A DNA stretch of 39,653 nt, from UHGV virus genome UHGV-0213571. The stretch is one strand, 5' to 3'. Positions within the stretch are counted from its first letter, which is position 1; each line of letters opens with the position of its first letter. Shown in pieces: positions 892 through 29,836 of this stretch. The notes under the pieces are model-generated. The model saw only the letters and a list, made by a program, of their open reading frames with translations, made no database searches and was not told the origin of the DNA. This stretch comes from a virus. The translations under genes and the position numbers were made by a program.

Positions 892-2317
892 TTTTTATGC
901 GCCGCCCCATAGCATCGAGGCAGAGCAGGCGGTGATTGGTGGATTGCTTCTGGATGATGACAGCAGTGAGCGCGTCCAGAAAGTTCTGGCGATGCTGAAG
1001 CCCGATTCATTTTACAGCCGACCACACAAAATCCTTTTCGAAGAAATAACCAGAATGCACCGGGAGCAAAAGCCAGTAGATGGCCTGACGCTTTTCGATG
1101 AACTGGAGCGTAAATCGTTAACGGCGTCTGTTGGCGGTTTTGCTTATATCGCTGAGATCGCAAAGAACACGCCGAGCGCCGCAAACATCGTTGCCTATGC
1201 AATGCAGGTTCGCGAAACCGCAATGGAACGCTACGCCATAAACCGCATGACTGAAGCGACGGAATTGCTCTATTCCCGCAACGGAATGACTGCAACGCAG
1301 AAGTACGAAGCTATTCAGGCGATTTTCACGCAACTGACAGACCATGCAAAAACCGGATCGCGTCGCGGCCTTCGCTCATTTGGTGAGGTCATGGAAGACT
1401 GGGTTAGCGACCTTGAGAAGCGATTTGACCCGTCAGGCGAACAACGAGGAATGAGCACAGGGATCCCATCGCTGGACAGGATGCTGTCACCGAAAGGTCT
1501 GGTGAAAGGCTCTCTGTTTGTCATTGGCGCTCGCCCTAAGATGGGGAAAACGACGCTATACAGCCAGATGGCAATCAACTGCGCAGTGCATGAGAAAAAG
1601 CCCGCTCTGATGTTCAGCCTTGAAATGCCAGGTGACCAGATACTGGAAAAACTGGTAGGGCAGAAGTCTGGTGTTAACCCGAATATTTTTTACCTTCCGG
1701 CGACAAATGACGCTGATGACGGCTATCAGGGTGATTACGATGGTGACTTCAACAGGGCGATCGAAACAGCCAATCGCTTGAGTGAAATCGACCTGCTTTA
1801 CATCGACGACACGCCGGGATTATCTCTGGCTCAAATCGTCAGCGAAAGTCGTCGAATCAAGCGAGAAAAAGGATGTGTTGGCATGATTCTGGTCGATTAC
1901 CTGACACTAATGACCGCTGAGAAGGCCGATCGCAACGACCTTGCTTACGGCATGATCACCAAAGGACTGAAGAACCTTGCCAAAGAGCTTGATTGCGTTG
2001 TTGTGCTTCTGACGCAGCTTAACCGCGCACTGGAAAGCAGAACCAATAAACGCCCATTACCAAGTGACTCACGAGATACAGGGCAGATTGAACAGGATTG
2101 CGATTATTGGGTCGGGATCCATCGTGAAGGCGCTTTTGATGACAGTGTTCCACCTGGTGAAACTGAACTAATCCTTCGTCTCAATCGTCATGGCAATACC
2201 GGCACGGTGTATTGCATTCAGGCAAATGGCGCTATTTATGACACAGACCAACAGTCTGCTGAAATGCGCCGACGTGAACGCGAGGAACCGCAGTCCAAGA
2301 AGAAAGGAGGATTCTGA
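881..2317 (+). CDS. Replicative DNA helicase, DnaB family (P22 gene 12-like)
   Basis: 479-aa product with DnaB N-terminal domain (IEAEQAVIGGLL) and RecA-like ATPase core with Walker A (GARPKMGKT); ATG at 881 preceded by GAGGGTG; overlaps initiator stop. Confidence 0.85.
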   Translation: MTDNFYAPPHSIEAEQAVIGGLLLDDDSSERVQKVLAMLKPDSFYSRPHKILFEEITRMHREQKPVDGLTLFDELERKSLTASVGGFAYIAEIAKNTPSAANIVAYAMQVRETAMERYAINRMTEATELLYSRNGMTATQKYEAIQAIFTQLTDHAKTGSRRGLRSFGEVMEDWVSDLEKRFDPSGEQRGMSTGIPSLDRMLSPKGLVKGSLFVIGARPKMGKTTLYSQMAINCAVHEKKPALMFSLEMPGDQILEKLVGQKSGVNPNIFYLPATNDADDGYQGDYDGDFNRAIETANRLSEIDLLYIDDTPGLSLAQIVSESRRIKREKGCVGMILVDYLTLMTAEKADRNDLAYGMITKGLKNLAKELDCVVVLLTQLNRALESRTNKRPLPSDSRDTGQIEQDCDYWVGIHREGAFDDSVPPGETELILRLNRHGNTGTVYCIQANGAIYDTDQQSAEMRRREREEPQSKKKGGF

Positions 2318-2345
2318 TGACCATCTACATCACTAAGCTAATAAC

Positions 2346-2376
2346 AGGCCTGCTGGTAATCGCAGGCCTTTTTATT
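2346..2376 (+). terminator. Rho-independent terminator between helicase and nin genes (tR2-like position)
   Basis: Hairpin AGGCCTGC-TGGTAATC-GCAGGCCT followed by TTTTATT. Confidence 0.5.
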
Positions 2377-2393
2377 TGGGGGAGAGGGAAGTC

Positions 2394-2834
2394 ATGAAAA
2401 AACTAACCTTTGAAATTCGATCTCCAGCACATCAGCAAAACGCTATTCACGCAGTACAGCAAATCCTTCCAGACCCAACCAAACCAATCGTAGTAACCAT
2501 TCAGGAACGCAACCGCAGCTTAGACCAGAATCGAAAGCTTTGGGCTTGCCTTGGTGACGTCTCTCGTCAGGTTGAATGGCATGGTCGCTGGCTGGATGCA
2601 GAAAGCTGGAAGTGTGTGTTTACCGCAGCATTAAAGCAGCAGGACGTTGTTCCTAACCTTGCCGGGAATGGCTTTGTGGTAATAGGCCAGTCAACCAGCA
2701 GGATGCGTGTAAGCGAATTTGCGGAGCTATTAGAGCTTATACAGGCATTCGGTACAGAGCGTGGCGTTAAGTGGTCAGACGAAGCGCGACTGGCTCTGGA
2801 GTGGAAAGCGAGATGGGGAGATCGGGCTGCATGA
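2394..2834 (+). CDS. ninB: NinB recombination protein (Orf family)
   Basis: Product MKKLTFEIRSPAHQQNAI... recognised as lambda NinB-like; first gene of nin block after the terminator. Confidence 0.8.
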   Translation: MKKLTFEIRSPAHQQNAIHAVQQILPDPTKPIVVTIQERNRSLDQNRKLWACLGDVSRQVEWHGRWLDAESWKCVFTAALKQQDVVPNLAGNGFVVIGQSTSRMRVSEFAELLELIQAFGTERGVKWSDEARLALEWKARWGDRAA

Positions 2835-3358
2835 CTATCAAATCAAATACGCCGGCACACGACAAGGACTGCTGGCAAACGCCGCTCTGGCTTTTTGATG
2901 CGCTGGATATTGAGTTTGGATTCTGGCTGGATTCAGCTGCGAGCGACAAAAACGCTCTGTGCGCTCACTGGCTAACTGAGGCTGACGACGCGCTAAATTC
3001 TGAGTGGATAAGCCACGGTGCAATCTGGAATAACCCACCGTACAGCAATATCAGGCCGTGGGTGGAAAAAGCCGCTGAGCAGTGCATACAACAGCGACAG
3101 ACGGTAGTGATGCTTGTGCCAGAGGATATGTCTGTCGGATGGTTCAGCAAGGCTCTGGAGAGTGTTGACGAAGTTCGCATCATCACTGATGGACGGATTA
3201 ATTTTATCGAACCATCGACAGGGCTGGAGAAGAAGGGAAACAGCAAAGGCTCAATGTTGCTGATTTGGCGACCGTTCATCAGTCCTCGACGGATGTTTAC
3301 TACCGTATCCAAAGCGGCATTGATGGCGATCGGGCTGGGCGTCAGGAGGGCTGCATGA
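2831..3358 (+). CDS. Phage-type DNA N6-adenine methyltransferase (Dam-like)
   Basis: Product contains NPPY catalytic motif ([11 protein letters not shown]) typical of N6-adenine MTases; ATGA overlap with ninB stop. Confidence 0.75.
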
Positions 3359-3531
3359 GGCGACAGCGACGAAGTATCACCGACATAATCTGTGAAAACT
3401 GCAAATACCTTCCAACGAAACGCTCCAGAAATAAACGCAAGCCAATCCCAAAAGAATCTGACGTAAAAACCTTCAACTACACGGCTCACCTGTGGGATAT
3501 CCGGTGGCTAAGACATCGTGCGAGGAAATGA
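3355..3531 (+). CDS. ninE: NinE-like small protein
   Basis: 58-aa product [40 protein letters not shown]... recognised as lambda NinE-like; AGGAGG RBS upstream; ATGA overlap with upstream stop. Confidence 0.55.
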
Positions 3532-3533
3532 CG

Positions 3534-4538
3534 ATGACTGCGTATTACAACGAAATAGATCCGTATGCAGCGCAATGGCTGCGTAACTTAATTGACGCTG
3601 GAGAAATTGCCCCCGGTTATGTAGATGAAAGGAGTATTGAAGATGTCACACCAGGTGATTTGCGAGGATTTACCCAGCACCACTTTTTTGCAGGAATCGG
3701 AGTTTGGAGCTATGCACTTAGAAAAGCAGGATGGCCAGACAACAAGAGTATCTGGACAGGAAGTTGCCCATGCCAACCTTTCAGCTCGGCAGGCAAAGGA
3801 AAAGGGGTTGATGACGAGCGGCACTTATGGCCGGCATTCTTCTGGCTTATTGAAAAATGCAATCCTGGCATCGTTATTGGCGAACAGGTTGCAAGCGCAG
3901 ACGGCCTCGCTTGGCTCGACCTTGTACAAACTGACTTGGAAGGTGCGAACTACACCTCTGCAGGTACCGATATTTGCGCTGCGGGCTTCGGTTCTCCGCA
4001 CATCAGGCAGCGATTGTATTGGGTGGCCTACTCCAACGACAAATATCAACTTTCAGCCAGAGACGCGCAGGGGAATTCAGAACCTATCTGGATGCGTGAG
4101 ACTAGCGGGATGGCAAACTCCTTTAGCGAACGATGCAACAGGTTCAACGCATTGCTACAGCGGAAAAGACAAGAGCGGAACCCCAAGAATCTGCTTGAAA
4201 CTTCCCGGGACGGTGAAGCTATGTACCCATTACCGGTTAACGGCTTCTGGAGAGATGCAGACTGGCTTTACTGTAGAGATGAAAAATATCGTCCAGTTAG
4301 ACCCGGCTCATTCCCGATGGTTAATGGCATTGCCAAAAGCTTGGGACGAGGCAAGTCCACACTGGGAAGAATGGCAAAGCGCAATCAAGATCAGCGAATT
4401 ATTGGATATGGAAACGCAATCAATGCAGAAGTAGCAACGGCATTCGTGAAAGTTTGTATGGAGGTTGTTAATGCTTATCCCATCCCAATCCCTTCAATAC
4501 CAGAAAGAAAGCGTCGAGCGGGCTTTAACGTGCGCTAA
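3534..4538 (+). CDS. DNA cytosine-5 methyltransferase (Dcm-like, orphan)
   Basis: Motif I-like FAGIGVWS and motif IV PCQPFSSAGKGKG (catalytic Cys in PCQ); no adjacent restriction endonuclease gene visible; start could also be 3528. Confidence 0.7.
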   Translation: MTAYYNEIDPYAAQWLRNLIDAGEIAPGYVDERSIEDVTPGDLRGFTQHHFFAGIGVWSYALRKAGWPDNKSIWTGSCPCQPFSSAGKGKGVDDERHLWPAFFWLIEKCNPGIVIGEQVASADGLAWLDLVQTDLEGANYTSAGTDICAAGFGSPHIRQRLYWVAYSNDKYQLSARDAQGNSEPIWMRETSGMANSFSERCNRFNALLQRKRQERNPKNLLETSRDGEAMYPLPVNGFWRDADWLYCRDEKYRPVRPGSFPMVNGIAKSLGRGKSTLGRMAKRNQDQRIIGYGNAINAEVATAFVKVCMEVVNAYPIPIPSIPERKRRAGFNVR

Positions 4539-8169: not shown

Positions 8170-8633
8170 GCAGAGTAACCGCGATTATCTCCGCTCTGGT
8201 TATCTGCATCATCGTCTGCCTGTTATGGGCTGTTAATCATTACCGTGATAACGCCATCGCCTACAAAGAACAGCGCGATAACAAGGCCAGTGAACTGGAG
8301 AAGGCGAACGCCACCATTACTGACATGCAGCAGCGCCAGCGTGATGCTGATGCACTCGATGATAAATACACGAAGGAGTTAGCTGATGCGAAAGCTGAAA
8401 ATGATGCTCTTCGGCGCAAGCTTGATAATGGTGGTCGGGTGCTCGTCAAAGGAAAATGCCCTGTGCCATCCTCAACCGAAACCTCCAGCGCCTCCGGCAT
8501 GGGCAATGATGCCACCGTCGAACTCTCTCCAGTTGCTGGACGAAACGTTCTCGGTGTCCGGGACGGAATTATCCGCGACCAAACAGCACTGAGAACGCTT
8601 CAGGAATATATCAGGACGCAATGCCTTCGATGA
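8166..8633 (+). CDS. Rz: Spanin inner-membrane subunit Rz
   Basis: N-terminal TM segment plus coiled-coil; lambda Rz-like N-terminus with divergent C-terminus. Confidence 0.8.
8386..8592 (+). CDS. Rz1: Spanin outer-membrane lipoprotein Rz1, embedded in +1 frame within Rz
   Basis: Signal peptide with lipobox (LIMVVGC) and proline-rich mature region; fully nested in Rz as in lambda. Confidence 0.65.
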
Positions 8634-8974
8634 TAGCGATAATTTTACTCATCATCCTTCACATCTGGCTCTGTAGACAGGGTGGTGCTCACTTCTGGAG
8701 TGAATCCAGATTAAACATCTCATTGCTGATGCTTGATATTGAGCATTTTGCGCGCGGTAAGGGGCTGCGTTGAGATAAGAGCCAGTCATTACAAATACCA
8801 GGATTTAGCCTCGCATTCGCGGGGCTTTTTATATCTGAATTTCACAGCGCATCTCACGCGCATATTAACGAGAGCCTTTCAGTAAGCGAGCCTGAGAAAT
8901 GCCGTTATAGGTGGCGACCTCTCTCGGGCGGCTTTTCTGTGAGACAGGCTCACTTTCTAAAAGGTAAAGACGCT

Positions 8975-21896: not shown

Positions 21897-24175
21897 TGGC
21901 TAAAGCATGGAAAGATGTTATCGCCTCTCCACAGTATCAGGCGTTAGCACCAGAACAAAAAGCGCAGGCTCAGGAGCAATACTTCAATGAAGTCGTGGCC
22001 CCGCAAGCCGGAGAAAATGCAGAGCAGGCAAAACAAGCGTTTTACTCTGCTTACCCTAGAGGTCTGCTAGAGAAGGGTAATATTGACATTCACAATCGGC
22101 CTGTTGTTAAAAACTCTGATGGCAGCATTAGCACTGTGCGGAGCATGTCTACCAATATAGATGGTAGAGAGGTGCTGATTCCTACCGTTAGTGATGATGG
22201 TCGCATTATGTCTGATGATGAAGCTATTGATAACTTCATGAGGACGGGAAAGCATCTTGGTATGTTCGACAATCCTGACGATGCCACTGCATATGCGGAG
22301 AGTCTGCACAACCAGCAAGCTGATGAATACCTCCCTGGGAAGAATCAAGCTACACAACAGCCTGCACAGCAAAGTACACAGGCAGCGCCACAGCAGCAAG
22401 GAGGTTTCATTTCCAACCTTGGCAATGCCGCGGCTGAAACTGGTCGCGGACTGGTGCAGGCTGGCGTGAACGTGGCAAACATACCTGCATCAGTTGCAGA
22501 TGCTGTAACAAGCGCGGCGGCTTGGGCTGGCGGTAAACTCGGCATTGGCGATGGTACATATCAACCAGCGCCACGAGTAACAACGCAGGGATTAGAGCAG
22601 GACTTTGGCCTTCAGCAAGGCGCGCTGACTCCACAAACGACAGAGGGAAGGGTGTTTGCTGAAGCATTGCCTTACCTCACTCCTGCTGGCGTTGAGAGAG
22701 CGGCGGTACAGGCGCCAACACTTGCTGGTCGAATTGCTCAGGGTGCAACTCGCCTTCTAGCAGAAAACGCAGTTGGATCACTTGCTGCAAACAGTGCGAA
22801 AGATGATGCGGAAGCACTCGCCACCGATTTAGGCGTTGGTGTGCTGGCTGGCGGTGCTATTAACGCTGCCGGACGTGGATTAGGTGCTGCTTATCGTGGT
22901 GTTCGTGGTTCGATAGCACCAGAAGCTCAACAGGCTATCAGGTTTGCAGAGCGTGAAGGAGTTCCTCTGCACACCACAGACCTGTTACAGCCTACTTCCC
23001 GCGTCGGGAAAATAGCGCAGACTACAGCAGAAAATATCCCCCTGGCTGGCACAAGCGGAATGAGAGCAACGCAACAGGAAGCGAGAAGCCAGTTGGTGCA
23101 GAGATTTGCCGATAAATTCGGTGAGTATGATCCAGCGGTTGTTATTGACAGCCTTAAGGCGAAAACATCAGGAATTCGTCGTGCCGCCGGTAATCGACTG
23201 GAGCAGGTTCAGAATGCTATGGCTGGAGTAAACATTCAGCCTGCGCGAGCAATTCAGCAGATTGATACAGAAATATCTAATCTGCAGAAGCTTGGTAAGG
23301 TCGCAGATAACGAGACTATTTCAAAACTTCAGTCCTATCGTGATGAGCTTGTTCGCAATGCTGGTCCTGATGGTCCGGTAAATCTGGATTTGAAGCAATT
23401 AAGCGATCTGCGCAGCCAGTTCAGAATGGACGTGAAGGGGGAACGACCAGTGTTGCCAAACCGTTCCGATGCTGCCATTCAGCGCGTTTACAAGGCGATG
23501 ACAGACGATATCAATGGTGCCATTGGTCAGAATCTTGGCAACGATACTCTCCGTAAATATCAGCAGGCCAATGCCGTCTACGCTGACGAAGCGGCGAAAC
23601 TAAAGAATACCAGGCTGAAGAATGTTCTCATGAAAGGCGACCTGACGCCGGAAGTTGTCAACAACATGCTATTCAGCAAGAACAAATCGGAAATTAAGAC
23701 GCTGTATAACTCAGTTGGTCGTGTTGGCAGGGCGCAAATGCGCAATGGCATCATTGGAAAGGCGATGGAGAAATCAGGTGGTTCCCCTGACCAGTTCCTT
23801 CGACAGCTTAACACCCTGCAAAACCAGACTGGCATCACATTTAAGGGGCAGGACGCTGCTTATCTGAAAGGATTGAAAAATTACCTTCAGTCCACTCAGC
23901 AGGCAGCAAAAGCGGCAGTAACAACACCAACAGGGCAGCAAACCATCCCGTTCATTATCGGGTATGGGACGGCAATGAACCCGGCGACAACTGGCGCAGC
24001 AGTAAGCTACGGACTTCTTACTCGCGCCTATGAGAGCGAACCATTCAGAAATGCAATGCTCCGAATGGCAAACACCCCACGCGGATCAACAGCCTTTGAG
24101 AAAGCAATGCAGCAGGCACAAAAGGCAATTAACGCTCTGACGCAGGGGGCTAAGTCTGATGCGTTGTCAGAATAG
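21896..24175 (+). CDS. Ejection / DNA-transfer protein, P22 gp16-like (larger than P22 gp16)
   Basis: 759 aa, position before tailspike, Ala/Gln-rich. Confidence 0.6.
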   Translation: MAKAWKDVIASPQYQALAPEQKAQAQEQYFNEVVAPQAGENAEQAKQAFYSAYPRGLLEKGNIDIHNRPVVKNSDGSISTVRSMSTNIDGREVLIPTVSDDGRIMSDDEAIDNFMRTGKHLGMFDNPDDATAYAESLHNQQADEYLPGKNQATQQPAQQSTQAAPQQQGGFISNLGNAAAETGRGLVQAGVNVANIPASVADAVTSAAAWAGGKLGIGDGTYQPAPRVTTQGLEQDFGLQQGALTPQTTEGRVFAEALPYLTPAGVERAAVQAPTLAGRIAQGATRLLAENAVGSLAANSAKDDAEALATDLGVGVLAGGAINAAGRGLGAAYRGVRGSIAPEAQQAIRFAEREGVPLHTTDLLQPTSRVGKIAQTTAENIPLAGTSGMRATQQEARSQLVQRFADKFGEYDPAVVIDSLKAKTSGIRRAAGNRLEQVQNAMAGVNIQPARAIQQIDTEISNLQKLGKVADNETISKLQSYRDELVRNAGPDGPVNLDLKQLSDLRSQFRMDVKGERPVLPNRSDAAIQRVYKAMTDDINGAIGQNLGNDTLRKYQQANAVYADEAAKLKNTRLKNVLMKGDLTPEVVNNMLFSKNKSEIKTLYNSVGRVGRAQMRNGIIGKAMEKSGGSPDQFLRQLNTLQNQTGITFKGQDAAYLKGLKNYLQSTQQAAKAAVTTPTGQQTIPFIIGYGTAMNPATTGAAVSYGLLTRAYESEPFRNAMLRMANTPRGSTAFEKAMQQAQKAINALTQGAKSDALSE

Positions 24176-24339
24176 CTGTGCAAACACTAGGAAAGTGCAA
24201 AAACCAAATATGTAGAACGCAATATTCAGCATATCTCTTTGCATAGACTCATCTCATAATTAACAAACCATAACTGACATTAGTGCAATGCTTGGCAAGT
24301 TGCATCTTGTCCGGTATTGCTACGTCCGGAGCAAATTAA

Positions 24340-26316
24340 ATGACAGACATTACAGCCAATGTTGTAGTAAGTATGCCATCGCAACTCTTCACTATGGCTC
24401 GTTCTTTTAAAGCAGTTGCCAATGGCAAAATTTATATCGGTAAAATTGACACTGACCCGGTAAATCCTGAAAACCAGATTCAGGTTTATGTAGAAAACGA
24501 AGATGGTTCTCATGTTCCTGTTTCGCAACCAATAATCATTAACGCTGCTGGTTACCCTGTATATAACGGACAGATTGCCAAATTCGTAACTGTGCAAGGC
24601 CATTCTATGGCTGTATATGATGCATATGGCGTACAGCAATTTTACTATCCAAACGTATTGAAGTATGACCCTGATCAGTTAAGGCAGGAGCTTGAAGGAG
24701 ATAAAGGTTTTTTAATCCCTGGTGGTCAGCAGGAAAGATTTTATGACCTACGCGCATTTGTTGAGCCAGGAGACCCAGCAGCTCCAGACTACACGCAGGC
24801 TTTCAAACGCGCCATCGCCTCTGGTAACGGACGAGTTTTTGTCAACGTTCCAGTGGAATTTACAGAAGATCTGACTATCCCGGCTAAGTTCCGCGTAGAT
24901 ATTGGTGAATGTGGTTATCTGTACACTAACTCAGCAAAAGTACGCATTGAAGGATTTATCAATACTATCGGGGGTAATGATCCGTATCGCGGTTACATCC
25001 ATCCATTTGGCGTTGACTCGTCAACAGTGGCGGGTATTTACACGATGCCTGTAACACTCATGGTTCCGGAAGATTACCGGACCATTCAGGAAGCAATTGA
25101 CGATATCCCAAATAATTATTGGCAGAGAATTATTATCTCAATTGCACCAGGAACTTATGATGAAGACATTGTAATCAGAAGCAAGAGGGGGTGCACACCT
25201 CTATTCCCACCTAGCGCATCGCAACAAGCAAACATAAAAGTAACAAGCAGAACAGGAATATATAGTGATGTGAATGTAAGATCTGCTCAGGTTTTTAATT
25301 GCGGTGGTACACCTTATTCCCCATCTTTTGAACAAATAAACTTCACAAATAGGACCCATTCTGATGAGAATGCATCCGTTGAATTCTATGGCTGCCCTAG
25401 CGGGGCTGTATATGGCTGTGGATTTAAAGGTGTCGGAGTTGAAAAATGTATCGAAGCATACAATAGCATTATTTCATCTGAATCCTGTCACTTCGGAGAT
25501 GAAATAAATGATTATGCTTATGTCGTAAAACATGGCGGGATAATACAAGCAAATAGCACGCAACTTGGTAATCTTCCTGTAACCAGCGGAATACTTAAGA
25601 AGTATATAGCATGGGGTATTGGAGGGCAAATAATTGCCAGCGACTTTAGCCCGCTAATTGGGCTTATGGGGGTATCTATATCTGACGGTGTTAATGCAGG
25701 TTTGATTTATGAAATATCTTCTAAGACTATAACCGGGGTAAACTGGTTTTCAAGAATGGACAACACAAGGTATCACACATTCTTTGAATCATATGATAAG
25801 TTTACTAATTTAACATCACAACCCGCAGACCAGATAACATATTTCCCGGAAAATGGGTTGTATATGCAGGCATCGAGTTCGGGAGTTGTTGAGCATAAAA
25901 TCACAAGGGGACACAGGCTAAGATATAAATTTGAAAACTCAAATTATAGAGCATTCTCTATCGCTCTATCGATAAACTCTGCTGCTACTGGTTTAATAGT
26001 TTCAGGCTCTGTTGATTCAGGTGATTATTTTGGGTTTAGAGTGTTATCTGGAGTTTTGAAAGGGGTTGTGTCTGTCTCAGGAAATGAGACAGTAATAGAT
26101 CTTTCACCCCCTGGGACACGAGCAGCGTACACTGCGAAGTATAGCGGAAGGGGTAATATACAAGGATCTGGAATGATTCAATTTTACAAGGATGATTTGT
26201 TGATAGGGTATATTTCAGGGAAGAAAGTAAATTCTTTCGATTCAACTATATTTGACGCAAGAATAACATCTGGGTCAATAACAATGCATGAATTAGAATT
26301 TGTAAGCAGCAATTAG
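24340..26316 (+). CDS. Tailspike protein: conserved N-terminal head-binding domain plus divergent receptor-binding domain
   Basis: N-terminus [11 protein letters not shown]...[27 protein letters not shown]...[12 protein letters not shown]...VLKYDPDQ matches remembered P22 tailspike head-binding domain; remainder unrelated and visibly AT-rich. Confidence 0.85.
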
Positions 26317-26367
26317 GTTAAGTTTAACATTCAGGGTGAGTAATATTATTACCCACCCTGAAATAAA

Positions 26368-27528
26368 TCAGTACACCTCTTTCCACGAATGCTGGAATAT
26401 TGTCTCGTATGGATAGAATAAATCAGGGTGATTATTAAATCCATATATCAGTCTTGAAATTAAATACAAAACAATAACGCTGTAAATTATAAATATTCCA
26501 GCATTCTTCCTAAACCTATAAAGAACAGATGAAACAAGAAATATCTCTGATGCAGAGTAATACATTGCTAATCTGCTAAAAACAGGATGAACAGAATCAA
26601 GCAACATAAACATTATTGAACTAAACGCAAACAGATTAAACATACCTCTTATGGTACGACCTTCATCATCGTTACGCATTCCATAAGTCGCCCATGCAAA
26701 AACAACAACGAATAATATTCTCTTAGCGTATCCTATTGCTCTTCTTACCTCGCTAGGAATCTCACTAAATGCGTTTAAATCTTGAAGAGCTAGATATCTA
26801 GTTATTTTCATGCTAATAAAAGACGGAAGATAACTTGTCATCAAGCCAAGTATATTGGCAGCGCCAAAAAGCATTGATATTATAGCGGCAATGCAAGTTA
26901 TTAATATTATCCTACTAATACTTGATTTCATTTTGAAAATCAAGTAAGCAGGGATAAACACTAACGCTGTTATATGAAAACCGGATGCAACAATAACGCA
27001 AAAGATAAACTTTGCTTTTGATTGTTCATTTTGTGTTATATATCTAAGTGAAAATATCGTTATCGCTATAGCTATTCCTTGCCTGACTGTAAACATATCC
27101 ATTGAATAAAAGGCCATTGATGCCAATATACATATAAGAGGATACCTTGAAATTTTAAAAAATGTTGAATACTTTAACACAACAACTATTGTTGCTATTA
27201 TAAATAGATAAATTGTGTAAGAGTCATATATATATTTTGATATGAAATTAACAAGAAGAAATAATGTCTCATATCCTTGAGACATGAAAATTTCAAAATT
27301 ATCACTATATGAGAATATATTAAGGTATGGCTCCCAGTCAGTACCTGTTCTCCATCTTATTCCGGCAAATATTATTGTTAATATTCCTATAAATGTAGCG
27401 ATTATTTTTTTATACACAATAGGAGTTTTTAATAAATCGCATGTTGCAACAAAAGAAGCAAATAAGAAGAATAAATAGTATATCATATTTATCACGGTTG
27501 TTATTAAGTTGGGTCCGGATTGTACCAC
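26368..27528 (-). CDS. Polytopic membrane protein, putative O-antigen polymerase (Wzy/EpsG family) — candidate serotype-conversion gene
   Basis: 386 aa, about 10 hydrophobic segments, AT-rich; N-terminal R-x-x-TGTDW-x-x-Y motif (IRWRTGTDWEPYLNIF) resembles EpsG/Wzy signature; sits in the tailspike-int conversion slot; alternative start at 27486. Confidence 0.55.
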   Translation of the reverse strand: MVQSGPNLITTVINMIYYLFFLFASFVATCDLLKTPIVYKKIIATFIGILTIIFAGIRWRTGTDWEPYLNIFSYSDNFEIFMSQGYETLFLLVNFISKYIYDSYTIYLFIIATIVVVLKYSTFFKISRYPLICILASMAFYSMDMFTVRQGIAIAITIFSLRYITQNEQSKAKFIFCVIVASGFHITALVFIPAYLIFKMKSSISRIILITCIAAIISMLFGAANILGLMTSYLPSFISMKITRYLALQDLNAFSEIPSEVRRAIGYAKRILFVVVFAWATYGMRNDDEGRTIRGMFNLFAFSSIMFMLLDSVHPVFSRLAMYYSASEIFLVSSVLYRFRKNAGIFIIYSVIVLYLISRLIYGFNNHPDLFYPYETIFQHSWKEVY

Positions 27529-27658
27529 TATGGCTACTCACGATCGATATCTATAGCATTGAATGCGATAAAAATTCTACATGATGCCAATTATATGCAT
27601 AAAATTTTTAATTGTACCTTTTGTTACTATTCGCAACAAAAGTATTATTGTGTGTTAT

Positions 27659-28819
27659 TTATTCTTCGCGTTTTTCATCAAGCCAGTCCGCCCACCACTG
27701 CATCATTTCTCTGCGCTTATCTAGATACTGAGCATGGTTGTAAATTCCACGCACAGATCCGCCGTTGGCATGTGCCAGTTGCACTTCAATAGCGTCAGCA
27801 GGCCATTCGTGCTCGTTCATAATCGTGCTGAATTCATGCCTGAATCCGTGACCGCTTTCCAGACCTTCATAGCCGATTTGTTTGATCACAAGTAGCACCG
27901 CGTTCTCGCAGATTGGCTTCTTCTTATCGTTGCGCCCGGCAAAAACAAACTCTGATACTGGTTTAGTGATGGAGCTTAGCGTAGTGAGAAGTTCAACCAC
28001 CTGGTCCGACATCGGAACCACATGAATCTTGCGTCCCTTCATCACACTGGCGTCGATGGTGATAATCCTGTTTTCAAAATCGACGTTCTTCCATAGCATG
28101 GAACGAAGCTCTTTTGTTCTGAGGGCTGTGTAGCGTAAAACTTTGGTCGCAATGAGCGATACGATACTTCCTGAAAATGTTGCCAGTGCTTTGTTGAATG
28201 CCGGGATCTGGTCTGCAGGAAGAAACGGGAAGTTTTTCTTGCGGTATCCCTTCATGGCGTCAGCAAGGTCAGGTGCCGGGTTATATTTAGCCCTACCAGT
28301 GACAATAGCGTAACGGAAAACCTCGCCGCATCTTCTGCGGGCTTTGTTGGCTCGCTCCATTGCCCCGCGATCTTCAAATCTGCGGATTACTTCCAGCAGT
28401 TGCATCGGCTCAATATCTTGAATTTCAATGCCGCCGATGATAGGTAAAATGTCGTCATCAAACATTTTTGCAAGTTCAGTCGCATACCCTACTGACCATA
28501 CTTGCTTCTTGTGCTCGTACCATTCTTTGTAAATCGCAATAAAGGAATTGTTGTTAGACGAAGCCTTTTTCGCCTTTACCGGATCGATGCCAACCGAGAT
28601 GTCTTTCCTCGCAGTCCATGCTTTATCCCTTGCCTCCTGCAAAGTCATAAGCGGATATTTTCCGACAGTCAGGATTTTCTCCTTACCGTCAATCTTGTAG
28701 CGAAGCTGCCATACCTTTTTCCCGGATACAGGGACATAAAGGTACAGGCCATTACCATCGAGAAGGCGGTATGGTTTTTCTTTCGGCTTAGCTGCTTCAA
28801 TCTGCTTAACGGTGAGCAT
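27659..28819 (-). CDS. int: Tyrosine integrase (P4-type, with N-terminal arm-binding domain)
   Basis: N-terminus MLTVKQIEAAKPKEKPYRLLDGNGLYLYV and C-terminal catalytic region (HGFRHEF...GIYNHAQY); ORF track extends to GTG at 28855 but ATG 28819 matches typical N-terminus. Confidence 0.85.
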   Translation of the reverse strand: MLTVKQIEAAKPKEKPYRLLDGNGLYLYVPVSGKKVWQLRYKIDGKEKILTVGKYPLMTLQEARDKAWTARKDISVGIDPVKAKKASSNNNSFIAIYKEWYEHKKQVWSVGYATELAKMFDDDILPIIGGIEIQDIEPMQLLEVIRRFEDRGAMERANKARRRCGEVFRYAIVTGRAKYNPAPDLADAMKGYRKKNFPFLPADQIPAFNKALATFSGSIVSLIATKVLRYTALRTKELRSMLWKNVDFENRIITIDASVMKGRKIHVVPMSDQVVELLTTLSSITKPVSEFVFAGRNDKKKPICENAVLLVIKQIGYEGLESGHGFRHEFSTIMNEHEWPADAIEVQLAHANGGSVRGIYNHAQYLDKRREMMQWWADWLDEKREE

Positions 28820-29074
28820 GGGTAAAAATCCGGTGGGTAAAATTATTTTATCCACTTTTTACCCGTCATGGAGTGCGGCTGTCAACGATCTGACGCGAAC
28901 CATTACGAACTGTGCATCTACAGAAGGCTTGATATTCAGGGGATTTTGCGGACTGGTACGGATGGGAGCGAACTGATAAATGGTGTCCCCTGCAGACATC
29001 TACTTGGCGCGGCAGGGGATTGATTGGAATGATGTTTTTTAGATGTGAAAAATATTTTACCCGCTATTTTACCC
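28820..29074. repeat. Cluster of five 8-mer repeats (GGGTAAAA / TTTTACCC) flanking the candidate att core; candidate Int arm-type binding sites
   Basis: Copies at 28820-28827, 28835-28842 (GGGTAAAA) and 28857-28864, 29055-29062, 29067-29074 (TTTTACCC). Confidence 0.4.
28981..28995 (-). other. Candidate attP core: 15-nt identity to the 3' end of tRNA-Arg(CCU) argW (CTGCAGGGGACACCA incl. CCA) on minus strand
   Basis: Plus-strand TGGTGTCCCCTGCAG is the reverse complement of the remembered argW 3' terminus; located between int and xis with flanking arm-like repeats. Confidence 0.5.
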
Positions 29075-29269
29075 ATTGGCGCGGCTTAAGAGCTTATTTT
29101 TGAATTCACAATGGTCACGATATAACCATCTTGCTCGTCCGTGGATAACTTTGGCTTTTGGCAGGTCGCCGGACTTAATCCGGTCGTAGATGAAGGTTTT
29201 ACCGAAGCCAGTATCGGCCATGATGAATTTCAAATCAACCAGTGAATCAGGCTGTAGTTCGTGTTGCAT
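29069..29269 (-). CDS. xis: Excisionase / AlpA-family DNA-binding protein
   Basis: 66 aa with HTH (MADTGFGKTFIYDRIKSGDLP) resembling AlpA/Xis family; directly upstream of int. Confidence 0.65.
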   Translation of the reverse strand: MQHELQPDSLVDLKFIMADTGFGKTFIYDRIKSGDLPKAKVIHGRARWLYRDHCEFKNKLLSRANG

Positions 29270-29288
29270 GAGTGCTATCTCCGAATAG

Positions 29289-29304
29289 GGAATCGAACCT
29301 GCAA
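29289..29304 (-). other. tRNA T-arm-like fragment (TTGCAGGTTCGATTCC on minus strand) matching tRNA-Arg argW positions about 46-62
   Basis: Contains canonical GGTTCGATTCC T-loop motif; not part of an intact tRNA (no acceptor pairing). Confidence 0.45.
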
Positions 29305-29310
29305 ATCAGG

Positions 29311-29336
29311 CAATAAAAAACCGCATTGATGCGGCG
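29311..29336 (-). terminator. Rho-independent terminator (minus strand) downstream of early-left gene
   Basis: Minus-strand CCGCA-TCAA-TGCGG hairpin followed by TTTTTT. Confidence 0.45.
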
Positions 29337-29391
29337 ATGGTAGGTCTGGATATCTTGATAAATGAAAATGCCTCATCGAGTGTGAGGCGGG

Positions 29392-29763
29392 TTAGTCCTT
29401 GCGTAGCTCGCTGATTCTTCTGTAAGTCTCTGGTGCTTTGTTCCCGTACGTCTTCATTTCAGACTTCAACAGAGCAACGAGTGAATCCCATTCGTTGAGG
29501 ATTCCTTTGAATGCCGGAACGCGCTTTGCAACCTTGTCGAATGAATCTCTGATTTCTGGAATCTGCTCAACAAGTGCAACGCATCGTCGGAAATCTGCTG
29601 CGTCATGTGGAGCGCCGAAGTGATGACCATAGATATTCTTTTTCAGTCCACATGCGATTGAGGCAAGAGTTGCGCTACTGATGCCGACATCGCCAGTCGA
29701 TTGCCATTTCAAAACCTTCATAGCCAAATCTGACATTTCTTGTCTCCAATAAAAAACCGCCAT
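29392..29763 (-). CDS. Hypothetical early protein
   Basis: 123-aa ORF in early-left operon; no recognisable domain; start may be internal (MSDLAM...). Confidence 0.5.
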   Translation of the reverse strand: MAVFYWRQEMSDLAMKVLKWQSTGDVGISSATLASIACGLKKNIYGHHFGAPHDAADFRRCVALVEQIPEIRDSFDKVAKRVPAFKGILNEWDSLVALLKSEMKTYGNKAPETYRRISELRKD

Positions 29764-29836
29764 CAGGCGGCTTGGTGTTCTTTCAGTTCTTCAATTCGAA
29801 TATTGGTTACATTGTTTTCATATATGAATAAATAAA

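Follow-up and report, generated by a model that had tools for sequence, protein, structure and literature searches.

A P22-like temperate phage genome carries a candidate EpsG-type O-antigen polymerase gene in its lysogenic-conversion slot

The virus genome UHGV-0213571, a stretch of 39,653 nucleotides referred to below as the window, represents a temperate phage of the lambdoid, P22-like kind in its entirety. Between its tailspike gene and its integrase gene (int) lies a minus-strand gene of the EpsG family (the EpsG gene; Table 1). To judge from the sequence comparisons described here, this gene would encode a functional Wzy-type repeat-unit polymerase that serves as lysogenic-conversion cargo, re-linking the O-units of the host and excluding superinfection; we put the probability of this reading at about 0.62. 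It is supported directly by family membership, conserved residues, purifying selection, the genomic slot, co-inheritance with the tailspike and a strict association with one host O-unit cluster. The original prediction had described a phage-borne Wzy/EpsG-like polymerase and candidate serotype-conversion gene. That interpretation is supported, and is refined by a revised start codon, a specific target glycan, the finding of no inhibitor and a predicted inverting mechanism.

The encoded protein matched the Pfam EpsG profile (PF14897) with an E value of 1.2e-45 and a score of 156.5 bits against a cut-off of 30.1, the match covering profile positions 2-325 of 326. In Pfam, at E values up to 1, it did not match Acyl_transf_3 (PF01757), Wzy_C, GtrA, GtrB, GtrC or any transporter family, and no matching model was found in NCBIfam or PHROGs; an identity as an acyltransferase, a Gtr protein, a Wzy_C enzyme or a transporter was therefore ruled out. 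The proposed EpsG/Wzy-like family assignment, for which a hit to an acyltransferase or transporter family was the outcome to be feared, was thus borne out over almost the whole profile. The R-x-x-TGTDW-x-x-Y motif that had suggested the family was found at residues 44-54 (R44-W-R-T-G-T-D50-W51-E-P-Y54), and in a 73-member alignment the corresponding N-terminal block (R-W-x-x-G-x-D-W-x-x-Y) was the best conserved of the EpsG family. Residues D50, W51, Y54, R135, H171 and R305 were invariant in these 73 diverse members, and R44, W45 and G48 were conserved in at least 90% of them; the alignment was too diverse for pattern scanning.

The hydropathy profile of the protein contains eight strongly hydrophobic Kyte-Doolittle segments, and further helices appear in an AF2 model, which was all-helical, with a predicted local distance difference test score (pLDDT) of 95.1 and a predicted TM-score (pTM) of 0.93. 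Both are consistent with a polytopic membrane protein of about ten transmembrane helices, as originally proposed. Foldseek searches with the model returned no match in the PDB (RodA and WaaL included) or in BFVD. In the CAZy classification, clan GT-C3 (families GT122-124) comprises inverting polymerases with a long N-terminal loop and two conserved arginines, one aspartate and one histidine, in an architecture different from that of the SEDS or O-antigen ligase type; in the same analysis, linkage stereochemistry follows family (PMC10920833). The lack of a Foldseek match agrees with this description, and the conserved Asp/Arg/His/Arg set of the phage protein fits the inverting clan GT-C3, as a pattern match to the published account.

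HMMER, run exhaustively against 1.84 billion representatives, returned 2,454 relatives, all at 43% identity or less except a 67% identical Citrobacter ortholog and a 94% identical fragment of 100 amino acids. The nearest relatives outside the phage clade came from Moellerella, Aeromonas, Vibrio and metagenomes. Where the context could be read, the nearest chromosomal relatives (41-42% identity) lay between glycosyltransferase genes, where standard Wzx/Wzy clusters have their wzy. Relatives in species-representative genomes were 22-34% identical and all lay in ordinary polysaccharide loci, with no further prophage copies among these genomes. A set of 50,697 phage records gave one weak tblastn match, and IMG/VR, searched with two query types, gave no relative.

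The placement between tailspike and integrase noted in the original prediction was confirmed; the EpsG gene is convergent to the tailspike gene. The proposal that this is a slot for conversion cargo also held when we compared other P22-like prophages with related tailspike receptor-binding domains (RBDs). Behind an RBD 85% identical to that of the window, in C. cronae (L112 7000-9750), gtrA-gtrB-gtrC occupy the position of the EpsG gene; behind one that is 69% identical (L114 6992-8884), the position holds a gene for a 630-amino-acid Acyl_transf_3-SGNH O-acetyltransferase; and behind one that is 64% identical, in E. coli (L113 5001-8189), the slot is empty and the tailspike gene abuts int. The oac gene of phage Sf6 occupies the same slot. 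These comparisons of gene content directly identify the interval between tailspike and int as a conversion-cargo slot, in which gtrABC, an O-acetyltransferase and no cargo would be three alternative conversion strategies behind one tailspike lineage.

The tailspike consists of a P22 head-binding domain (about residues 1-120), a beta-helix receptor-binding/depolymerase domain and a C-terminal lectin-like beta-sandwich. A model of the RBD (pLDDT 81.8) matched the CBA120 TSP2, Klebsiella K2-2 and Acinetobacter depolymerase tailspikes at E values of 5e-9 to 4e-6, with TM-scores below 0.4. A sub-threshold match to Pectinesterase (PF01095) was noted at 25072-25188 (residues 245-283), with a G-T-Y-D-E motif where the beta-helix starts, and the same faint match recurs in homologous tailspikes. 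An esterase function was rejected, because this match lies below the cut-off and is limited to the N-terminal cap, and because the model resembles depolymerase tailspikes. The RBD of the window (24700-26316) is also 53-72% identical to tailspikes that have a PF18668 (TSP1/gp66-type) N-terminus in place of the P22 head-binding domain, among them that of the lytic Kuttervirus CBA6 (KM389302; L005 5819-7435), at 66.5%. The same glycan is probably targeted by unrelated virulent phages.

The tailspike and the EpsG gene are inherited together. An exact match to the 372-amino-acid EpsG protein is listed for at least 48 assembly blocks, every one from E. coli. Ten places were displayed, nine of them with a downstream flank, and in the called-gene tables the 658-amino-acid tailspike adjoined the EpsG gene in seven of these nine. 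In the other two (L097 and L100) no gene was called beside the EpsG gene, yet a gap of tailspike size was present. The tailspike also lies beside the EpsG gene in L001, L003 and L004, and an identical tailspike-EpsG pair was found in L092, L093 and L098 (7001-10147 in each) and in L001 (18041-21446). In the L092 variant, the tailspike gene is preceded in addition by an insertion with ant/arc that resembles P22 immI. Copies of the EpsG gene occupy three chromosomal sites: argW, with IntS; ybhB/bioA, where no int is adjacent and only an 87-bp int remnant is left; and a third site, which adjoins a gene for a PBP5-type peptidase.

Among 5,426 complete E. coli genomes, the RBD was found solely in the two that carry the EpsG gene. 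The Citrobacter sp. Cb018 prophage resembles the window in int (82% identity), EpsG (67%), the tailspike RBD (71%) and gp10 (83%), and its gp7, gp16 and gp20 are essentially unrelated to their counterparts; the pair has therefore stayed together on differing mosaic backbones. The linkage of the two genes suggests that the tailspike is the functional partner of the EpsG protein.

The reading frame of 386 codons named in the original prediction exists on the minus strand (26368-27528), when read from a GTG codon; the stated length stood less well. Homologs of the product all begin at MIYY, PGAP annotates 372 amino acids in two genomes, and the ATG at 27486 is kept in the Citrobacter version, which lacks the upstream extension. 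For these reasons the 372-amino-acid product from this ATG is almost certainly the real one, and the GTG form, which we dropped, is probably an over-extension. The AT-richness that had been pointed out was confirmed: the G+C content is 0.307, and 0.255 at third codon positions, against 0.475 for the window and about 0.50-0.51 for the structural genes, and the gene lies in the lowest-GC stretch of the window. Rare codons make up 62 of its 372 codons (17%), against 6 of 417 in the coat gene. A heavy load of rare codons is usual for wzy genes.

Few blocks are invariant in the alignment of the E. coli and Citrobacter int-EpsG intergenic regions. One of them, TATCGATC, occupies the -35 position of a putative promoter whose extended -10 element, TGgTACAAT, is aligned to TGtTATCAT of Citrobacter, in a spacer that has diverged elsewhere. 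A generic promoter scan did not report this element. The block contains a Dam (GATC) site. Phase variation in gtr operons is Dam-dependent, and a possible Dam link may deserve a look.

The gene might instead be silent or decaying cargo, a piece captured from a polysaccharide cluster, unexpressed or with no suitable substrate, and so without a phenotype. The rare-codon content would fit this, as would the lack of a recognisable strong promoter or Shine-Dalgarno sequence at the gene; as a study of Kapi1 shows, ORFs (open reading frames) in the slot may have no detectable effect on lipopolysaccharide (LPS) (PMC8787464). However, comparison of the E. coli and Citrobacter EpsG genes over 372 aligned codons gave a pN/pS ratio of 0.26 with no indels, although synonymous sites were saturated, and all E. 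coli alleles examined were intact. From this ratio, we conclude that the gene is under purifying selection. It is also intact in dozens of assemblies, including a prophage stripped of most of its other genes; the residues of the catalytic signature are preserved; and the gene is strictly tied to one O-unit cluster. We therefore regard silent cargo as improbable.

That cluster lies between galF and gnd, and is shared by both complete E. coli genomes that carry the EpsG gene. It contains wzx, genes for a 311-amino-acid protein and a glycosyltransferase, wzy, a gene for a GT4 enzyme, and galE. It occurs in 14 of 5,426 E. coli genomes, and the probability that both carriers would fall among these is about 6e-6. 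All carriers with a readable O-locus have this cluster or its Citrobacter ortholog. In Cb018, the O-unit cluster is syntenic with that of E. coli and its products are of near-equal size; its O-unit genes are 50-64% identical to those of E. coli, and the flanking galF, gnd and ugd genes are 91-97% identical. Taken with the identity of the EpsG proteins, this indicates that phage module and O-unit cluster co-occur, and have diverged similarly, across two genera. The resident host Wzy has no similarity to EpsG and no Pfam match, and its relatives outside E. coli, in a search of 5.8 billion protein clusters, were confined to Citrobacter proteins with 61% identity, one of them in Cb018, where its contig has the same length as that of the prophage. 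Because the host Wzy is unrelated, an origin of the phage gene from the host's own cluster was ruled out.

Beside the galF-gnd cluster, both E. coli carriers have an O8-type ABC-transporter cluster with man, wzm and wzt genes, between wzzB and his; the two O-polysaccharide loci together occupy 19048-46056 in L006 (strain 1297KP) and 10773-29593 in L007. Of strains with the galF-gnd cluster, one has been typed as O8:H2 and another was unclassifiable (PMC8209727). A literature search on O8:K40 and group 4 capsules yielded nothing usable. The dual-locus layout may resemble the O8:K40, or group 4 K-antigen, arrangement. Synthesis of O8 needs no Wzy, which points to the galF-gnd unit as the likely substrate of the phage enzyme; the polymer of this unit may be an O-antigen or, against an O8 background, resemble a K-antigen.

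The enzyme could act on a different glycan or in a different reaction, by polymerising or transferring colanic acid, enterobacterial common antigen (ECA) or capsule, or by adding branches as a ligase-like GT-C enzyme. Exopolysaccharide polymerases are indeed among the members of the EpsG family. Several polymers linked to undecaprenyl pyrophosphate (Und-PP) are made by the E. coli carriers examined, namely colanic acid, O8 and the galF-gnd polymer, and ECA is universal in E. coli. Such near-universal glycans as colanic acid and ECA would not, however, account for a cluster present in 14 of 5,426 genomes or for its Citrobacter ortholog. The wzm/wzt annotation makes O8 dependent on an ABC transporter, a pathway generally known to need no Wzy, and the window encodes no other glycosyltransferase or glycan gene. 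We consider this the least probable of the alternatives, slightly behind silent cargo.

One carrier bears on how the two polymerases relate. In 1297KP the chromosomal wzy (L006 23605-24765) is a pseudogene that carries the nonsense mutations E25* and W153*; compared with the intact allele of VTB96777v it has 11 substitutions and no indels. In the argW prophage of the same strain (L002 18517-21187), an IS1A element cuts the tailspike gene and the structural genes are gone, while the EpsG gene and int are intact. This pattern, a single case, is what would be expected had the phage enzyme taken over polymerisation. It is possible, if doubtful, that the phage polymerase overrides an unrelated resident Wzy without an inhibitor, that the chromosomal wzy then decays and that the prophage erodes around the polymerase that is kept. 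If so, 1297KP would show, in progress, how wzy genes end up outside O-antigen clusters, and E. coli and Citrobacter would have new surface antigens invisible to cluster-based in silico serotyping.

The same strain could be read in another way, with the phage enzyme as a back-up polymerase that forms the same or an equivalent linkage as the host Wzy and leaves the serotype unaltered. Its benefit would be a long O-antigen that protects from other phages, serum or the gut environment, or the rescue of wzy-defective phage-escape mutants. The dead chromosomal wzy beside an intact EpsG gene is in keeping with this, as is the fact that the phage encodes no inhibitor of the host enzyme; loss of wzy is a common route to phage resistance, as in work with Kapi1 (PMC8787464) and in wzy excision in Salmonella (PMC12074656). 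On the other hand, the two polymerases have no detectable similarity and stereochemistry follows family (PMC10920833), the other cargo of the slot (gtrABC and oac) alters the receptor and does not keep it, and lysogens that kept the native receptor would be open to wasteful adsorption of sibling phages. We judge a back-up role unlikely, though less so than silent cargo.

A search for an inhibitor was negative: the tailspike-int slot contains no plausible small membrane ORF of the Iap or gp22 kind, and the 66-amino-acid inhibitor of phage epsilon15 and the 31-amino-acid inhibitor of phage D3 gave no tblastn match in the window at E values below 0.39. Outside the larger genes, short, strongly hydrophobic ORFs were found at 24167-24244 (minus strand, 25 amino acids), 2317-2397 (plus, 26 amino acids) and 8621-8773 (plus, 50 amino acids). 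The first had a promising position, between gp16 and the tailspike gene and roughly where iap lies in D3; it was dropped as a candidate because it is not conserved in Citrobacter and is missing from the L092 variant.

In the conversion mechanism that we favour, a lysogen would make the polymerase from the gene's own weak promoter and insert it in the inner membrane. There it would join the Und-PP-linked O-units that the host makes with its rare galF-gnd cluster of wzx, three glycosyltransferase genes and wzy, and flips with its Wzx. The units would be joined through a different, equatorial linkage (beta for D-sugars); this prediction is drawn from the lack of relationship to the host Wzy and from residues that fit the inverting clan GT-C3. 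The re-linked polymer would serve poorly as substrate or receptor, both for the depolymerase-type tailspike of the phage itself and for phages with related RBDs; superinfection would be excluded, the serotype changed, and lysogens shielded from phages that use the native polymer. We infer that the lysogen expresses the gene, which units the enzyme uses, that it forms a new linkage, that it dominates the host Wzy with no inhibitor to help it, and that superinfection is excluded; of these, the changed linkage and the block to superinfection had been put forward in the original prediction.

Several points weigh against conversion by this polymerase. With no inhibitor found, the phage enzyme might not prevail over an intact host wzy such as that of VTB96777v, and the outcome could be a mixed polymer or no visible change. 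The decay of the host wzy was seen in one strain only. The O8 locus is also present in the E. coli carriers examined, so that the dominant surface polymer is not fixed by their gene content. The candidate promoter consists of the aligned extended -10 element alone, which the generic scan missed, and 17% of the codons of the gene are rare. Finally, because no solved or viral predicted structure was matched, the predicted fold lends no independent support to the function.

Table 1. Positions in the window of the EpsG gene and of the features around it
Feature	Position	Strand	Basis or remark
P22-type tailspike, 658 aa	24340..26316	+	PF09008, E 8.6e-67
Stem-loop of 15 bp separating the stop codons of the convergent tailspike and EpsG genes	26330..26362	.	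Terminator-like, no U tract
Predicted EpsG-family Wzy-type repeat-unit polymerase gene	26368..27486	-	372 aa; stop codon 26368-26370; PF14897
Family signature codons R44-W-R-T-G-T-D50-W51-E-P-Y54, N-terminal loop	27325..27357	-	Family alignment
In-frame GTG extension, 14 codons, probably untranslated	27487..27528	-	GTG overlaps putative -10 element
Putative extended -10 element TGgTACAAT	27519..27527	-	Inferred; about 30 nt upstream of ATG
Conserved block TATCGATC with Dam GATC site	27542..27549	-	-35 position of putative promoter
IntS-type tyrosine integrase, argW-specific	27659..28855	-	Pfam Phage_integrase, Phage_int_M, Arm-DNA-bind_3
attP core, 16 bp	28980..28995	.	Identical to 3' end of tRNA-Arg argW
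Excisionase (TorI/Xis-like), far side of attP	29069..29269	-	Equivalent at distant prophage end in L002 annotated torI

The genes of the window run from O/DnaB replication functions through the nin region, Q, lysis, Rha, terminase, portal, scaffold and coat to the ejection proteins, tailspike, EpsG, int, attP, xis, RecT/Gam and CI/CII. Near the tailspike head-binding domain and int, the backbone is 94-97% identical to Sf6, HK620, CUS-3 and Kapi1, and the int gene itself is 96-97% identical in DNA sequence to those of Sf6, HK620 and CUS-3. Because attP is intact, the window represents the excised form of the phage, and the order in the lysogen is argW-int-EpsG-tailspike; the prophage junctions of L002 map onto window positions 25529-28995 and 28980-29810. 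The stem-loop between the tailspike and EpsG genes has a predicted RNA folding energy of -21.9 kcal/mol (z = -4.5), equalled by none of 200 shuffled sequences. Two DNA methyltransferase genes lie in the nin region, at 2771-3358 and 3492-4538 (PHROG 111 and PHROG 363). In the VTB96777v prophage (L001 10539-11264), the gp10-like gene is interrupted at its start by an HNH endonuclease gene, and a 93-bp fragment of it is left; this insertion is missing from the window.

Public records label the gene merely "EpsG family protein". Characterised phage-borne Wzy polymerases are few, comprising those of epsilon15, D3 and, recently, Acinetobacter prophages. If functional, the gene would offer a genetically tractable system of E. 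coli and a P22-like phage in which to ask how a second polymerase prevails without an inhibitor, a question shared with the Acinetobacter work, and a tailspike, a resident Wzy and a phage Wzy that match one another, with which to study the linkage specificity of polymerases. It would also call for caution in genome-based serotyping and in predicting host range for phage therapy, since strains with the same O-locus could differ in their polymer with prophage content.

Among known systems, the gtrABC genes of P22 and the oac gene of Sf6 share the genome position and the Lederbergvirus backbone lineage of the EpsG gene. Their products have no Pfam similarity to the EpsG protein, and add glucose or acetyl groups to finished O-units, whereas the EpsG protein would alter how the units are joined. 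Chromosomal EpsG-type Wzy proteins, such as that of Moellerella wisconsensis (41% identity), resemble the phage protein in family, length and the Asp/Arg/His/Arg set, a pattern that also fits the GT-C3 description; the chromosomal genes lie inside biosynthetic clusters, whereas the window copy is detached and phage-borne, its nearest chromosomal relative being about 42% identical.

Phage epsilon15, like the window phage, is a temperate podovirus of Enterobacteriaceae, although it is a Uetakevirus and not P22-like. Its beta-polymerase gene lies directly downstream of, and convergent to, the tailspike gene, as does the EpsG gene. The epsilon15 polymerase changes the linkage between O-units and blocks re-adsorption (PMC3715488). 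The protein, gp21, is of the Wzy_C type (PF04932) and has no similarity to the product of the window gene, and epsilon15 also encodes a 66-amino-acid inhibitor with two transmembrane segments (gp22) and an acetylation repressor, neither of which was found in the window. Among the 50,697 phage records, the epsilon15 polymerase gene (L008 23271-24662) was restricted to epsilon15-type records; phage isolates sequenced so far thus seldom have polymerase cargo. In Pseudomonas phage D3, a siphovirus, a second, phage-borne O-antigen polymerase (Wzy-beta) replaces the linkage made by the host (PMC4815439). The D3 enzyme has a weak Wzy_C match and needs the 31-amino-acid inhibitor Iap, and D3 also has an O-acetylase; the EpsG protein, unlike the epsilon15 and D3 enzymes, has no Wzy_C match.

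The closest analogue in mechanism and family, by comparison with published descriptions, is the Wzy1Ph and depolymerase module of Acinetobacter baumannii prophages, in which an EpsG-family Wzy encoded beside a tailspike depolymerase re-links capsular K-units, as established by nuclear magnetic resonance and gene knockout (PMC9241936, PMC13228068). Wzy1Ph resembles the window gene in being of the EpsG family (PF14897), in its location near the gene of a tailspike depolymerase in a temperate prophage, and in being tied to particular loci (KL127 and KL58), as the window gene is to one O-unit cluster. No dedicated inhibitor has been identified for Wzy1Ph or Wzy2Ph, yet the resident Wzy is overridden, and the benefit proposed is the same, protection from phages that depend on the native linkage (PMC9241936, PMC13228068). 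The systems, likened here by family and description, differ in genus, in phage type (the Acinetobacter phages are not P22-like) and in substrate, capsular K-units as against LPS O-units; the change of linkage has been demonstrated in Acinetobacter and is predicted for the window gene. A review of E. coli O-antigens (2019) treats a second wzy outside the cluster as a mere hypothesis (PMC7685785), the P22-like coliphage Kapi1 lacks a polymerase gene of this sort (PMC8787464), and our literature search found no report of an O-antigen polymerase in P22-like phages of E. coli. Phage-borne polymerases for O-antigen and capsule are thus known; what appears to be new is an EpsG-type one, apparently free of an inhibitor, in P22-like phages of E. 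coli and Citrobacter.

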